A stretch of 30,500 nucleotides of DNA, taken from positions 1 to 30,500 of the forward strand of contig RFIK01000006.1 of assembly GCA_003695605.1 (NCBI GenBank), read 5' to 3'. The stretch's first letter is position 1. Each line of letters opens with the position of its first letter. A program made the position numbers and the translations under genes. The stretch is from Chlorobiota bacterium. Lineage in GTDB: Bacteria; Bacteroidota; Ignavibacteria; Kapaibacteriales; NICIL-2. A model generated the notes under the pieces. It saw nothing but the letters and a program-made list of their open reading frames with translations, was not told where the DNA came from and ran no database searches. Below, one piece after another: positions 1,254 through 30,500 of the stretch.

Positions 1254-2783
1254 TTACTTTCTGATGCTGCCAGTCAGCTTGTATGCCCCTATCCAAAGGT
1301 AATTGGAACTATCCAATACTGTTCCGATCAAGATTCCATCACGAAAATCATGGGGAATGAAATGATTCCCCGCATACAAATCATGCGTGAAGACTGGGCT
1401 GCCGTCCGGCCAACAACAGTGGAGATACTCACGATGCTGAACGCGTGCATCGCTAAAGTCAACTACGCCTTCGGGGTACTCGGTATTCCGATACGGCAAG
1501 AGGAACATCCCGGTTGTCTTGTCGTAGAAAATCTTGCGAAAAGCTATATTTGATACCAACCCATCAAGGGGTGTTCCATCCTTGATAGTTAGTTTTCCGT
1601 TTCTCTCTGGCAGATCCCAAGATGGAACTCGATAGGTATCGGAAAAATGTAGTGGAATGACTTTTATGAGGTTGCCCCTGCGATCCCAGACTCGGAGCGA
1701 CCGACCAAACTGAAAAAGGGATACTGTTGTGCTATCACCATAACAGCCAAAGATAGCACCAAGCCATCGGGAAACTCGGTACTGATAGTAAATGCTATCA
1801 ATGCCACGTCCAATTGCAACAGTTTTACCTGTTATGTCTCCAACCCAGATTGTTGTGTCCTCTGGTGTCAGCAAACGGTGGGGAGACGTTCCACTTCTTG
1901 AAATGTATATTTTCCCATCGCAGTAGCCGCATTCTATGTCGAGGGGTAGCTGGCGCGATAGATAGCTTACATTGTGTAGCGTTGGCTCACCGATCGTGTA
2001 GAGAGCAAGATAGTGGGGATATTCGAAGGTGGATCCACAGATGAGGAGCGACTTTCCGGGTGTATCCCAATCTATTGAACCAATACCCATACAGTGCAAC
2101 GAATCCAATCGAATTGGCGTCCGTGTTCGAATGGTTCCGGTGCTATCAATAATCAACAGCTGGCATTGCGTTCCATTGACGAGGTAAAAACTCTTCCTCT
2201 CGGGACCAACAAGCATTAGTCGTGACCATCCCGACTTTAGCATGTGTCCCGCCGTATCTCGTACAGGAAGTTTCCATAGCAATTCGAAGTACCGCTCAAG
2301 ATCTGTTCGTTCGATCACAACAGTGTTCGCCAGTGAGTCCCGGAGTGAGCGTAGAGTCGTTCCAACAGTTTGTGACGTAGGAGATTCGATTGCTAAGATT
2401 TTACCAACCCTATCAAGAATCAAAATGACTGGGAGCGTTCGGATTTTGTAAAAATTCCGATAGATTTGAAACTCATCTCCCACAATAGGGCACTCAATCT
2501 TTTCCTCTCTGCGAAATGCTTCTGCATCTGATTGAGAAAATCCATCGAGGAAGACAACGTACTCAACCGGATAATTACGCAGCTGTTCGTAGAATTGCTC
2601 AATATTCATCATGCAGATGACACAATTCGAGCGATCGGTGAATACATAGACTCGCATTGCGTAGTCGCTCTGCGGCTTGAGCGGACGCACAGTGTCGCCA
2701 ACGTAAAAATCAGTATAGCGAAGGCTTTCTTGCGAGAAAAGCAACACTCGGACGACCAGGAGGATAGCAAGGATGTGTTTCAT
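1254..2783 (-). CDS. Secreted protein: N-terminal thioredoxin/redoxin (TlpA/AhpC-TSA-like) domain with CxxC, plus a C-terminal beta-rich, probably beta-propeller, region (509 aa)
   Basis: Start moved to MKHILAILL (ATG at 2783), a signal-peptide-like stretch. CVIC at 2613-2624; cis-Pro loop RTLPVILILDRVGKI. The remainder has short beta-strand repeats (LLIIDSTGTI, LRVWDRRGNLIKVI). The propeller call is an inference. Confidence 0.8.
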   Translation of the reverse strand: MKHILAILLVVRVLLFSQESLRYTDFYVGDTVRPLKPQSDYAMRVYVFTDRSNCVICMMNIEQFYEQLRNYPVEYVVFLDGFSQSDAEAFRREEKIECPIVGDEFQIYRNFYKIRTLPVILILDRVGKILAIESPTSQTVGTTLRSLRDSLANTVVIERTDLERYFELLWKLPVRDTAGHMLKSGWSRLMLVGPERKSFYLVNGTQCQLLIIDSTGTIRTRTPIRLDSLHCMGIGSIDWDTPGKSLLICGSTFEYPHYLALYTIGEPTLHNVSYLSRQLPLDIECGYCDGKIYISRSGTSPHRLLTPEDTTIWVGDITGKTVAIGRGIDSIYYQYRVSRWLGAIFGCYGDSTTVSLFQFGRSLRVWDRRGNLIKVIPLHFSDTYRVPSWDLPERNGKLTIKDGTPLDGLVSNIAFRKIFYDKTTGMFLLPYRNTEYPEGVVDFSDARVQHREYLHCCWPDGSPVFTHDLYAGNHFIPHDFRDGILIGTVLDSSNYLWIGAYKLTGSIRK

Positions 2784-2822
2784 TGTAAAACCTGCTGGGG
2801 CATTGCACACTATTCGAAAAGA

Positions 2823-2848
2823 GGAGGGGAGAGATGCCTCTCCCCTCC
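2823..2848 (-). terminator. Intercistronic GC-rich hairpin (partial terminator or mRNA stabiliser)
   Basis: Perfect 11-bp stem GGAGGGGAGAG-N4-CTCTCCCCTCC, followed on the minus strand by TCTTTT, between the small secreted gene and the redoxin gene. Confidence 0.7.
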
Positions 2849-2862
2849 AGGGCCGCGAACCG

Positions 2863-3330
2863 TTATGGTGTGGGGACGAAGACCGTGTATTTGCCGGTGT
2901 CATCAGTCACAATCCCGCCGAGATTGATTGTGATACCGACGAGCTGAGGGTATTCGGTGCACTCGACAATTTCGATTTCCTCAGTCGGTGTAAAGTAGTA
3001 GTTCCGCCCGTCGCGAGTGAATGTGTTCCAGTTACCCTGGCTGTCCTTTACAGACAAGGTGACTTGATCGAGCTGGAGCTCGATTGCGTAGCCGTAAGGT
3101 GGAACAGGGGTGACTTTCCCTTTGACCAGACTTGTGCATGGTTCAACGATGCAATCCACACCCCCATCATAACAACCGTGGTGACGATCGCTCCATGCAT
3201 AGATCCCTGTACCAAGAGGCACTTTCCGATGCACCCAGCAGTCCGTCTCAGCAGATGACAACGTTGTAAGCAGATGCAGCCATGATGTGGCAACAAGAGC
3301 GTACATCGCTAATCCAATGTTAGTTTTCAT
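2863..3330 (-). CDS. Small secreted Cys-containing hypothetical protein (155 aa)
   Basis: Hydrophobic signal peptide ending LSSA; five Cys in the mature part (four clustered near its N-terminus); beta-rich; hairpin directly after the stop; co-oriented with the redoxin gene. Confidence 0.8.
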   Translation of the reverse strand: MKTNIGLAMYALVATSWLHLLTTLSSAETDCWVHRKVPLGTGIYAWSDRHHGCYDGGVDCIVEPCTSLVKGKVTPVPPYGYAIELQLDQVTLSVKDSQGNWNTFTRDGRNYYFTPTEEIEIVECTEYPQLVGITINLGGIVTDDTGKYTVFVPTP

Positions 3331-3490
3331 GATTGATGGAAAAATAGTTGAACATTGTTGAACAAATGAGCAACGATGCGAAAAGAAGACAACTCACTTT
3401 AGAAATGTTCATCAGTGAATCCTGATGCCTTCCCTGATGCGGCGGCGGTCGCTCAGCCAATGGCCAGGGAGAGGGTGTTGATGAGTATGG

Positions 3491-3537
<47 letters not shown>

Positions 3538-3721
3538 AGCTCCTCACCTCGTGGCATTGGCCAATCCCAACAGATACCTACGCTGCGGAGCTGCAAGATA
3601 GGCGCACGAAAAAGGTCAACGGTTAGGCACAACTTGAACATGGCGCTTTAATCTTCCGTTGCTTTTGTGCTCTACAAACTAAATTACAAATTGACAAGAC
3701 AAAAACAAGAAAGCTGCCCTG

Positions 3722-28229: not shown

Positions 28230-28943
28230 ATGTTGCGTAAACTGTGTGTTGCTGCACTTGTTCTTGCATCCGTCGTATCCTCTCAGGCTGGCGAGACAGG
28301 TGCGAAGGCAATTCTCCAAAACGAGAACAACTGCCGGCCTCCGACAATTATCACACTTCCGTGTCTCGGGGGTTGTTACGAATGGTCGGTTCAAGAGGAC
28401 CGCAATTGTGATGGCGTGTACGACTGGATTACAGTGAAGCGATGTGATGGCTCGCTCTGTTCTCAACCGATTCAGTCCGTTGCATATCCGATTGGGAATA
28501 TTGCTGATGGAGTCTTCAGTATCGCGTTTACTTCTTGGCAATGTGCAGACGGACGCTGGCAGTGGCAGCTTGATCTCTTCGACCGTGATTCTTCATTACT
28601 GGCATCGGTGATACAGAGGTGCGGAGATTCTACACCGCAGGTGGTGTACCCTGCACCACCGGTGATAGCTCAGAGCAGCAACGAAGCTGAAACTTCCCAA
28701 GCGCGCATTTTCCCAAATCCGACTACTGGAGAACTTTTGATCACGAATGCAGAAGCGGTGGTAAAGATTGATGTGTATGACAGCAAAGGGCGAAGGATCG
28801 AGACACCGGCCCTCGAGGCACGGAAGGATGGTGAAACGTATGTACTACGACTCTCTGATAGCCTGCCATCGGGTGTTTATCTGCTCGCGATCCATCGAGC
28901 AGGACAAAAGCCAGAATTCGTTCCGTTTGTTATGTACCACTAA
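28230..28943 (+). CDS. Secreted Cys-rich protein with T9SS type A sorting domain (paralog A, 237 aa)
   Basis: Signal peptide; 8 Cys in the N-terminal domain; CTD IFPNPTTGEL...VYDSKGRRI...LPSGVYLL. Confidence 0.9.
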   Translation: MLRKLCVAALVLASVVSSQAGETGAKAILQNENNCRPPTIITLPCLGGCYEWSVQEDRNCDGVYDWITVKRCDGSLCSQPIQSVAYPIGNIADGVFSIAFTSWQCADGRWQWQLDLFDRDSSLLASVIQRCGDSTPQVVYPAPPVIAQSSNEAETSQARIFPNPTTGELLITNAEAVVKIDVYDSKGRRIETPALEARKDGETYVLRLSDSLPSGVYLLAIHRAGQKPEFVPFVMYH

Positions 28944-28956
28944 CTTGGCATTCAAA

Positions 28957-29697
28957 ATGAAACTCTGGTCAAGAGCCATTGCACTTGCGATGATTGCTAC
29001 TGTTCTTGTTGCTGAACCAGCAAAGCCACAGATGTACCAATGGCAGTGCCCCGGACCAAATGGCGGGTGGGGCTGGCAGGTCCTTGAAGATCGTGATGGG
29101 GATGGACGGTATGACTGGGAAACGCGGCATGAGTGTGACGGTTCGATCTGCGAAGGCCCACTTGGAGTTAGCAACAAACGACAAATTGGGTACTTATCAG
29201 GTTGGGTGTCACTCTCGTTTACGCAGCTTGTTTGCGAGGAATCTGTTCCCAATGGGTGGTCCCTCCGTTTATTCGACACCAACGGTCTTCTCATGGGGAC
29301 AGTTGAGCATTCCTGTTCCGATACAACTGCGAAGCTCATTCTCCCTGAAGTTGTGCCGGAGTCCCTCAAAGGAGCAGACTTTCGAAAACGCCAAGCGCTT
29401 GGCCGATACGCATTCGTATTCGAGAATCTCAGCGCGACATGGAATGCTGCTTCTTCGACGCTTGATGTAACATGCCGTGTCAAAATCCCTCTTCCCTTGA
29501 CACTTCGCGTATTGGAGCGGAATCGTGGGCAAGAGGATCGAGTAATTGCAACGGTCGTTACTCCGCAGCCTGTGGTAGGAGAACGTGTCATTCACGTCCC
29601 AGTACCGCCACTGCATTCTGGGATGTACTACTGGCAAGTGATGGCACCGAATGGATCAGCTGTGACAAGTGTATTTACGATCGAGTCGTTGCGATAA
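28957..29697 (+). CDS. Secreted Cys-rich protein with a divergent T9SS-like CTD (paralog B, 246 aa)
   Basis: Start moved to MKLWSRAIALAM (ATG 28957). The N-terminal domain aligns with paralog A; the C-terminus has LHSGMYYWQV. Confidence 0.85.
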   Translation: MKLWSRAIALAMIATVLVAEPAKPQMYQWQCPGPNGGWGWQVLEDRDGDGRYDWETRHECDGSICEGPLGVSNKRQIGYLSGWVSLSFTQLVCEESVPNGWSLRLFDTNGLLMGTVEHSCSDTTAKLILPEVVPESLKGADFRKRQALGRYAFVFENLSATWNAASSTLDVTCRVKIPLPLTLRVLERNRGQEDRVIATVVTPQPVVGERVIHVPVPPLHSGMYYWQVMAPNGSAVTSVFTIESLR

Positions 29698-29734: not shown

Positions 29735-30050
29735 ATGGTGATTGCCATGTTCATCTTGCTCATTGCTCTCATCTTCTCCTTGTGGCAGTCTGAGTTGAGC
29801 AGAGCCACGCAAATCAACTAACCCCGCGGGCTATGGCTGTTGGGCAGCACCGCCTCATGAACCGGGCTTAGTCAAGTGTGAAGGGAATTGTTCGAGAATC
29901 TGTGCTCTCTGTGAACTCGGTGTGTACGGTGGTGACTATCCAGACCGTCTCGTTCTCTTTGATTCGAATGGTGATCCATCATTTGAATCGCAGTGCCGGT
30001 ACATCATGCCAGCATCCGATGGGAACGGGTTCTTCGTTGAATTGCCTTGA
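29735..30050 (+). pseudogene. Frameshifted small secreted Cys-rich protein (signal peptide and mature domain in different frames)
   Basis: ATG 29735 opens MVIAMFILLIALIFSLWQSELSRATQIN* (stop 29819-29821). The +1 frame is open from 29799 to 30050 with six Cys and no upstream start codon; a hairpin follows its stop. Not in the supplied ORF track. Confidence 0.6.
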
Positions 30051-30055
30051 GTAGC

Positions 30056-30078
30056 AGGGGAGCCGATACGGCTCCCCT
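30056..30078 (+). terminator. Intercistronic GC-rich hairpin
   Basis: Perfect 10-bp stem AGGGGAGCCG-ATA-CGGCTCCCCT, 5 nt after TGA 30050. Confidence 0.7.
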
Positions 30079-30111: not shown

Positions 30112-30500
30112 ATGTACAACCAAATGAATGTGCTGAGCGTAGCTTTTACTCTGTCTTTGCTCTGTTCTTCCGCAGCAGCCGTTGAGCACATCTACACTGA
30201 TTCACTCAGGAATAGCATCGTAATATCAAGTCCTATCATGAAGTCGTTTGTAAGTGGCCATGGTACTGCCGCGCCGATTCATGTTGTGTTCTTTATTTCA
30301 CGCCCCCGTGCGTATATCTATGGCGAAGCCTTAGTTGCGAAAACAATTAGCCAGCTGCAGACGTTGGGATTTGATGGTACAATTACCGTCGTGGTTCGTG
30401 GGAGGAGATACTATGCAGACATTGAGTATGTAAGAAGGCAACGCTGGCTGGCGAGAGTGTACATTGATACGTCGGGAAGGCTGCTGGAAGCTGCGAGGAT
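30112..30500 (+). CDS. Secreted protein with a redoxin-like N-terminal fold lacking CxxC; truncated by window end
   Basis: Translated by hand, open to 30500: MYNQMNVLSVAFTLSLLCSSAAA...IHVVFFISRPRAYIYGEALVAKTISQLQTLGFDGTITVVVRGRRYYADIEYVRRQRWLARVYIDTSGRLLEAAR. The strand-helix-strand-helix pattern suggests a thioredoxin fold (inference). Confidence 0.7.
   Translation, partial: MYNQMNVLSVAFTLSLLCSSAAAVEHIYTDSLRNSIVISSPIMKSFVSGHGTAAPIHVVFFISRPRAYIYGEALVAKTISQLQTLGFDGTITVVVRGRRYYADIEYVRRQRWLARVYIDTSGRLLEAAR

Follow-up and report, generated by a model that had tools for sequence, protein, structure and literature searches.

Within a window of 30,500 nucleotides (nt) from the Chlorobiota bacterium assembly GCA_003695605.1 (order Kapaibacteriales), two loci share the same layout: a gene for a small exported protein with conserved cysteines is followed, on the same strand and across a spacer that holds a stem-loop, by a gene for a larger exported protein. 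The window is the whole of contig RFIK01000006.1 (C116 in our numbering), one of the 240 contigs of a fragmented assembly (G000) of 1.88 Mb that is 86% complete. We designate the small and large proteins of locus 1 as A and B, and those of locus 2 as E and F, respectively. B combines a thioredoxin-like domain with a six-bladed β-propeller, and we consider, with a probability of about one half, that both loci belong, as divergent versions, to a two-gene module specific to the Kapaibacteriales in which an exported client or ligand is coupled to a thioredoxin-propeller partner. A first-pass annotation of this DNA had proposed that one cassette occurs at both loci; the shared layout and its recurrence in related genomes bear this out, with the reservation that in this assembly E is split and F is cut by the contig end.

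The gene pair at locus 1

The elements of locus 1 are the following:

2863..3330, minus strand: gene A, a 155-residue exported small protein (open reading frame (ORF) call, 32-row alignment, AlphaFold2)
2823..2848, minus strand: stem-loop GGAGGGGAGAG-GCAT-CTCTCCCCTCC, then TCTTTTCG (terminator scan, folding)
1254..2783, minus strand: gene B, a 509-residue exported protein (ORF call, AlphaFold2, VIA, profile search)

The 155-residue frame, the 11-base-pair (bp) hairpin and the redoxin-propeller protein of the first-pass annotation were all recovered here, the last of them in the AlphaFold2 model. The start of B is most likely the ATG at position 2783 (MKHIL...), and a longer frame drawn to 2903 is unlikely because it overlaps A. 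Behind an N-terminal segment that resembles a signal peptide or an anchor, the model of B, built on a 108-row family alignment, reached a predicted local distance difference test score (pLDDT) of 92.8 and a predicted template modelling score (pTM) of 0.88. Residues ~40-155 are predicted to form a thioredoxin domain of the TlpA/ResA kind, with C54-V-I-C57 opening the first helix and the succession of strands (E) and helices (H) expected of the fold (E43-49, H55-68, E73-80, H84-93, E100-103, H107-111, E119-123, E128-133, H140-153; pLDDT ~90-98). Within the family, the CxxC motif is kept in 93 of the 108 rows, its first cysteine in 107 and D103 in all 108. When searched against the PDB, the family profile found the thioredoxin-like entry 2m72 (E 5e-4), StoA (3erw, E 0.012) and several ResA entries (E 0.2-0.7). 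Matches to curated families are faint, as B reaches Pfam Thioredoxin_8 at E 0.001 with 19.8 bits, under the gathering cut-off of 27, and the NCBIfam ResA model with a score of 17 against a cut-off of 170. Thioredoxin_8 matched 4 of 11 relatives of B at E <= 0.1 (best 1.5e-5), and Redoxin and AhpC-TSA were also matched.

The rest of B, residues 164-506, is modelled as a six-bladed β-propeller. Its best structural match is 3s9j, the DUF4221 protein BVU_1028 of Bacteroides vulgatus (VIA Z 20.5, root-mean-square deviation 3.7 Å over 323 residues), followed by other six-bladed propellers (NHL, sialidase, pyrroloquinoline quinone dehydrogenase and 4raa) at VIA Z ~16-18.5, with 4raa at 17.0. No Pfam propeller family matched B at E <= 1, nor 10 of its 11 relatives at E <= 0.1, the remaining relative matching SdiA-regulated at E 0.056.

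Gene A encodes a hydrophobic, signal-peptide-like N-terminus of ~27 residues, for which the sequence suggests cleavage near ...LSSA/ET, and a mature part of ~128 residues that is predicted to be an all-β domain of 11 strands (AlphaFold2 with 32 rows, pLDDT 82.1). Two cysteines of the family, six residues apart (C53 and C60), are conserved, one of them without exception and the other almost so, and there is a conserved C-terminal block, EYPxLxGvxvxLxGxxvxxxGxxxVyIP, with the tail ...G-x3-V-x-[IV]-P. The CW pair and the LSVKDSQG turn, once put forward as motifs common to both small proteins, proved not to be conserved within the A family itself. No clear relative of A came out of the comparison with solved structures, in which the best VIA Z was 5.8, against half of a trypsin-like barrel, and Foldseek returned nothing at E <= 0.001. 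Scans of Pfam and NCBIfam likewise gave no match to A, and the ESM Atlas held no usable neighbour for either A or E.

Recurrence of the cassette in the Kapaibacteriales

We searched 40 relatives with A and B and found the two genes adjacent, in the same order and on the same strand, in five other genomes, some of which carry two small genes. Among 34 B-like loci, an A-like ORF immediately precedes the large gene, in the same orientation, at 23 (hidden Markov model (HMM) E 4e-8 to 1e-54), 7 of which have two small genes in tandem. The pairing is kept across families and genera of the order at protein identities of only ~15-25%. A different arrangement is seen at L036 (G108:C2, 1348-4508), where a single A-like gene is followed by a direct tandem of B-like genes, of 554 and 499 residues.

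The range of the B family was traced with its 108-row profile, which recovered, from 1.84 billion proteins, 332 cluster representatives at E <= 1e-3, with 92 of them reaching E <= 1e-30; of the 150 representatives listed, almost all are ~500 residues long. A hand count over 201 genomes of the order gave a match at E <= 1e-30 in 38 of them, the largest number in one genome being five. Of 401 genomes sampled across the phylum, eight had a match at E <= 1e-20, and all eight belong to the Kapaibacteriales. A word-indexed protein search yielded only 5 relatives for the A profile and 2 for B, and the source names attached to the protein relatives point to Kapaibacteria of hot springs. The B profile also matches, weakly (E 1e-6 to 1e-8), frames of 588-762 residues that the other searches assign neither to B nor to F (for example G056:C2:129456, G179:C4:403864 and G070:C13:6539), and further branches of a thioredoxin-propeller superfamily may lie among these longer proteins.

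The description of the cassettes as polymorphic, already given in the first-pass annotation, agrees with their multi-copy state and with their presence, absence and decay between close genomes. The other 7 genomes of the genus all lack B. The sister genome G007 retains a remnant between hutH and the 5S ribosomal RNA (rRNA) gene (C1:1815836-1818976), in which the final 43 nt of B directly adjoin the hairpin and the final 145 nt of A are also kept (87% identical), and the alignment is explained by two clean deletions that correspond to window positions 1297-2804 and 3008-3610. This remnant implies that the cassette is ancestral at this site and dispensable. Two further loci carry damaged genes: an A-like gene of G018 (L002, C101, 316-720) has an in-frame TAA, and at L057 (1269-2784) a B-like gene is split into ORFs of 79 and 433 residues.

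The search for additional cassettes, which the first-pass annotation had suggested, was productive in the relatives, as the 23 paired loci document, and came out empty in the genome of origin, where tblastn with the four proteins A, B, E and F revealed no additional complete paralogue and only the C-terminal fragment of a second F-type gene turned up. That fragment, at a contig end (C225:5797-6369), comprises the last 191 codons of the gene and is 38% identical to F and 66% to F2 of G006, a complete genome of the same genus that served as our reference for locus 2.

Locus 2 and its relation to locus 1

At the far end of the window, on the plus strand, the second locus comprises the following elements:

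29735..29821, plus strand: gene E, 5' piece with the signal-peptide part (MVIAMFILLIALIFSLWQSEL...), ending at TAA (alignment with G006)
29799..30050, plus strand: gene E, 3' piece with the Cys-rich mature part, 83 codons stop to stop, without a start codon (alignment with G006)
30056..30078, plus strand: stem-loop AGGGGAGCCG-ATA-CGGCTCCCCT, then a pyrimidine-rich tail (folding)
30112..30498, plus strand: gene F, truncated after 129 codons where the contig stops (98% identity to the complete gene of G006)

A protein of ~104 residues had been read across the first two of these elements, and no single open frame encodes it here. The two pieces of E lie in different frames because 2 bp (CA) that are present in G006 are missing near 29797/29798, and the intact ORF of G006, whose DNA is ~98% identical to the window over this gene, has 105 residues. 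The mature E protein is 100% identical in the two genomes, and by our reading of the alignment all 5 nucleotide differences are synonymous, which indicates that the E family is under constraint. The split allele could be either recent or an assembly error. In the family alignment of 8 rows, the mature part of E is ~80 residues long and carries two conserved blocks, C-x-G-x-C...CA-x-I and YPDxLxLYD-x-G.

F is 602 residues long in G006 and has a signal-peptide-like start, at 30112 in the window; F-type proteins are ~100 residues longer than those of the B type. Profile alignment of the F family (5 rows) with the B family (108 rows) by hhalign gave a probability of 94.8% (E 5e-8) over 441 collinear columns, which begin in the thioredoxin domain and extend through the final blade; with only 10 rows of B the probability was 82%. 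On this comparison of sequence profiles, we accept the two families as remote homologues with a common architecture, which bears out the relation between the large proteins that had been proposed from inspection. The label "redoxin-like" given earlier to F survives in part. The profile alignment pairs F with the thioredoxin-like domain of B. At the position of the CxxC motif, the window reads ...SRPRAYIYGEA..., the F-type proteins have ...PRxF..., and a cysteine is absent from all 5 F rows; by its sequence, F would at most contain a redox-dead domain of thioredoxin-like fold.

The small proteins behave differently from the large ones. The first-pass annotation had treated them as one family, and the profile-profile comparison proposed for this purpose did not sustain that view. 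An initial hhalign probability of 86% for A and E was obtained with the signal peptides included; after trimming, the mature parts scored 0.2% (E 0.27), with no detectable homology, and the initial hit was rejected as produced by the signal peptides. Direct BLASTP of A against E gave E 1.6. The two families share only the extreme C-terminal tail, ...[DN]G...h-x-h-P. Of the similarities noted before by eye, this tail is what remains as a conserved feature of both families, and a regular expression for it matched 17 of the 32 proteins of type A and 5 of the 8 of type E, compared with 5 of 1765 crude genome ORFs (A among those 5). Since this expression was written after seeing the data, we take the likeness of the tails as a lead, not as evidence.

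E-like genes stand upstream of F-like genes in G006, as a tandem E-F-E2-F2 array, and in G003 and G002. They also precede F-like genes in G126, G065, G005 and G123 (HMM E 2e-10 to 3e-6), so that the E family extends beyond the genus. The E/F pair is rarer than A/B, with F-like matches in 13 of the 201 genomes of the order. The F-type fragment on C225 suggests that the tandem array is probably present in the genome analyzed here too, broken by the assembly; E2 was not found among its assembled contigs.

These results bear on the explanation that locus 2 is an unrelated pseudogene beside an unrelated gene and that only locus 1 is a real cassette. In its favour, BLASTP (E 0.39 for B against F) and searches with the family HMMs against single sequences link neither E with A nor F with B, E is frameshifted, and the small families have no detectable relation. 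We nevertheless judge such a coincidence very unlikely, given the collinear alignment of F with B, the intact and tandemly duplicated E and F of G006 with their conservation in other genera, the purely synonymous divergence of mature E, and a hairpin in the corresponding position in 5 of 6 E/F cassettes.

Stem-loops between the paired genes

The locus 1 hairpin has a perfect 11-bp stem and a 4-nt loop and is placed 14 nt after the stop codon of A and 39 nt before the start codon of B. It folds at -30.5 kcal/mol over 81 nt (z-score -1.9), and its best 45-nt stretch, at -25.3 kcal/mol, was equalled by none of 100 dinucleotide shuffles. This hairpin passes a terminator scan, with 11 pairs, 8 of them GC, and the tail given above. 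The 10-bp hairpin reported at locus 2 was confirmed with a 3-nt loop, 5 nt after the stop codon of E and 33 nt before the start codon of F; its z-score of -5.2 was reached by none of 200 shuffles, the minimum in the spacer is -20.3 kcal/mol (0 of 100 dinucleotide shuffles), and its sequence is the same in G006.

We then compared the small-to-large spacers of 22 A/B and 7 E/F cassettes with 100 dinucleotide shuffles each. Of these cassettes, 8 with spacers below 25 nt or overlapping ORF calls were left out of the hairpin counts, which also do not include a further cassette, L045, with a spacer of ~200 nt. A hairpin that at most 1 of 100 shuffles reached was present in 18 of the 21 spacers of at least 39 nt (13 of 15 A/B and 5 of 6 E/F), with stems of 9-14 bp whose sequences are mutually unrelated. 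As a base rate, 12 of 137 co-directional spacers of 40-125 nt in the genome of origin reach the threshold of -20 kcal/mol, as do both spacers in the window. Recurrence at the same place together with this low base rate indicates that the hairpin is a conserved part of the cassette. The conservation of position without conservation of sequence also keeps plausible the suggestion, made in the first-pass annotation, that the hairpin raises the first product over the second.

Proposed mechanism and competing explanations

Our model of an exported pair draws on gene order, spacer size, domain content and the conservation of cysteines. The small and the large gene would be co-transcribed, as we infer from the 33-39 nt between hairpin and start codon, which leave little room for a promoter. 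The hairpin would end or stabilize most transcripts after the small gene, so that more of the small protein than of the large one would be made. Binding of the small protein by the propeller may then take place in the cell envelope. In the B type, the CxxC thioredoxin domain would form, reduce or shuffle the disulfide or disulfides of its small partner, and in the F type, with the redox cysteines lost, only a binding or chaperone role would be left. The cassette could serve envelope remodelling, or provide an exported effector or a variable surface component. The predicted complex of mature B with mature A obtained a score of 0.13 (mark 0.32), which counts neither for nor against binding.

Several observations weigh against a functional module of this kind. 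No recognisable small gene precedes 11 of the 34 B-like loci (10 of these were inspected, and unrelated genes stand there), which implies that the large protein can stand alone. The mature small proteins of the two loci are not detectably homologous, and the two cassette types may have recruited different small partners. The propeller of B has almost no invariant residues and so offers no catalytic clue, a pattern that fits a binding platform better than an enzyme. The F family found nothing significant in Pfam and PDB profile searches, so that its fold rests on the profile alignment with B. The hairpin is also less uniform than the model would have it: in 8 cassettes the ORF calls leave a spacer too short for one, 3 of the 21 longer spacers are without it, the terminator scan did not call the hairpin of locus 2 because its T-tract rule failed, and many hairpins of the relatives have no clear T-run, for which reason the label "terminator" is not established.

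Part of this evidence agrees with the explanation that the paired genes are mere neighbours, the hairpin being the full terminator of an independent small gene and the large gene having its own promoter, with no functional link between the two. The B-like genes that stand alone, the fit of the locus 1 hairpin to the terminator consensus, and the pairing of small and large families in two non-homologous combinations would all be expected in that case. What makes it unlikely is that adjacency, order and strand recur at 23 of the 34 loci across families and genera in spite of the low identity, that the distance from hairpin to start codon in the window is so short, and that the deletions in G007 took out both genes of the pair.

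The order of a small gene, a stem-loop and a larger gene is also the classical layout of operons for bacteriocins and for ribosomally synthesized and post-translationally modified peptides (RiPPs), to which the loci had originally been likened. In such a system a small precursor would be overproduced by means of the hairpin, and the thioredoxin-propeller protein would mature it or give immunity; the conserved cysteines of the small proteins and the multi-copy, fast-diverging character of the families are compatible with it. The analogy does not hold up well against the predicted structure of A, a compact all-β domain of ~128 residues with no leader/core split behind a putative cleavable signal peptide. 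It also sits poorly with the surroundings, since no gene for a radical S-adenosylmethionine enzyme, a cyclodehydratase, a lanthipeptide enzyme, a peptidase or an ATP-binding cassette exporter is found beside locus 1 or locus 2, and the cassettes of the relatives have housekeeping neighbours only. We therefore regard a RiPP or bacteriocin system as highly improbable and retain the exported pair as the preferred reading.

An upstream microsatellite and possible switching

The spacer between hutH, which encodes histidine ammonia-lyase, and gene A contains a further element:

3491..3536, no strand assigned: compound dinucleotide repeat, (GA)8(GT)15 on the plus strand, equal to (AC)15(TC)8 on the gene strand (hutH-A spacer)

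This repeat, which precedes the start codon of A by 161-206 nt, is the sole long dinucleotide repeat in the window, and the assembly of 1.88 Mb has just one other (AC/GT)>=8 site. Comparable sites occur near cassettes elsewhere. The complete 2.8-Mb genome G027 has a single such site, (TG)9, located 49-66 nt upstream of one of its A/B cassettes; one of two sites in G080 and one of five in G119 lie upstream of a cassette; and in G010 a (GA)10 tract lies ~700 nt upstream. On its sequence and position, the repeat at 3491-3536 is a candidate element for slipped-strand phase variation, and repeats of this kind upstream of several cassettes might allow on/off switching by slipped-strand mispairing. 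The association is not exclusive, because the remaining repeats precede genes for unrelated exported proteins or lipoproteins. Examples are found at C216:187-204 in the genome of origin and at L083 and L084, where (AC)n shortly precedes genes that encode Cys-rich exported proteins or lipoproteins, and the distribution suggests that the phase-variable envelope genes of the Kapaibacteriales form a larger set. Homopolymer runs of 9-18 A or T also occur upstream of many cassettes; as their background frequency in the genomes was not measured, we did not count them as evidence.

Taken further, these elements could belong to an undescribed class of contingency cassettes, in which a fast-diversifying exported β-barrel, switched by microsatellites and held by the hairpin in excess over a private oxidoreductase or receptor, docks into the propeller through its C-terminal strand (...[DN]G-x3-h-x-h-P). 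We consider this elaboration quite unlikely. If it were true, the envelope or an exported effector could vary in response to phage or competitors, and the cassettes would offer the first bacterial handle on thioredoxin-propeller fusions, including NHLRC2.

Other features of the window

Matches to this DNA, whole or partial, occur in 20 of 22 listed sequencing runs, 4 of which are recorded as RNA. Locus 1 is flanked by hutH on one side and by rRNA genes on the other:

1-1001: 23S rRNA, 3' part
1077-1193: 5S rRNA

Between the end of the 5S rRNA (1193) and the stop codon of B (1254), a GC-rich stem-loop with a 14-bp stem is present at 1205-1236; as the 5S rRNA and B converge on it, it could act as a shared terminator for both. 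The neighbours of locus 2 are paralogues of type IX secretion system (T9SS) cargo. Two paralogous Cys-rich exported proteins, C and D, are encoded at 28230-28943 and 28957-29697 (BLASTP E 7e-18), the first of which carries a T9SS C-terminal sorting domain (Por_Secre_tail, E 4e-8) and is apparently split into two ORFs in G006. Profile alignment of E or A with the N-domains of C and D was not significant, and neither was direct BLASTP of D against E or of A against D.

Significance and comparison with known systems

Thioredoxin-propeller fusions are widespread, and the human member NHLRC2 is essential and linked to disease; to our knowledge, no clients of such fusions have been identified. The present analysis indicates that one bacterial order expanded this fusion to hundreds of variants, most of them tied through a structured spacer to a small exported partner that bears cysteines. 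The cassettes thereby yield a concrete and testable hypothesis of a client and its enzyme, with the F type as a natural redox-dead comparison, and the microsatellites hint at a possible regulatory logic. For annotation, the gain consists of two families of small proteins and two of large proteins, and the gap in ORFs at 29735-30050 is explained by a frameshift. Full-text literature searches, which covered open-access papers only, found no description of the cassette and nothing for "DUF4221". The cassette is presented here as previously unnamed, within the already known class of extracytoplasmic thioredoxin fusion proteins.

Intercistronic terminator or attenuator hairpins are a known means of setting the ratio of the first to the later products of an operon, as for the structural genes of bacteriocins and lantibiotics. 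The cassettes resemble such operons in their small first gene, strong stem-loop, short spacer and larger gene on the same strand. In contrast, they include no genes for modification or export, and their first gene is predicted to encode a folded domain, not a peptide.

With the oxidoreductases TlpA, ResA and StoA, B shares the profile matches of its N-terminal domain, the conserved CxxC motif and export. It differs from them in scoring under the Pfam cut-off and in being fused to a propeller, and the F type lacks both cysteines. The DUF4221 and related propellers of Bacteroides (3s9j, BVU_1028; 4raa, BF0058) are the best structural matches of residues 164-506 and, like B, are exported and come from the same phylum. 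A thioredoxin domain is absent from them, however, their identity to B is only 9-12%, and B has no Pfam propeller match.

In overall architecture, B resembles NHLRC2, which is described (PMC6107167; PDB 6gc1) as a thioredoxin-like domain with a six-bladed NHL β-propeller. B has the same succession of an N-terminal thioredoxin-like domain and a six-bladed propeller, with a Foldseek E of 2.1e-9 to 6gc1_D and VIA Z of 17-18 to NHL propellers. The whole-chain TM-score is nonetheless only 0.31/0.29, and B has no NHL match in Pfam; it is also exported and has no third C-terminal domain. In the material consulted, no small partner gene came up for NHLRC2 or for DUF4221, whereas B is confined to the Kapaibacteriales in the genomes searched and is paired there with a small exported protein.

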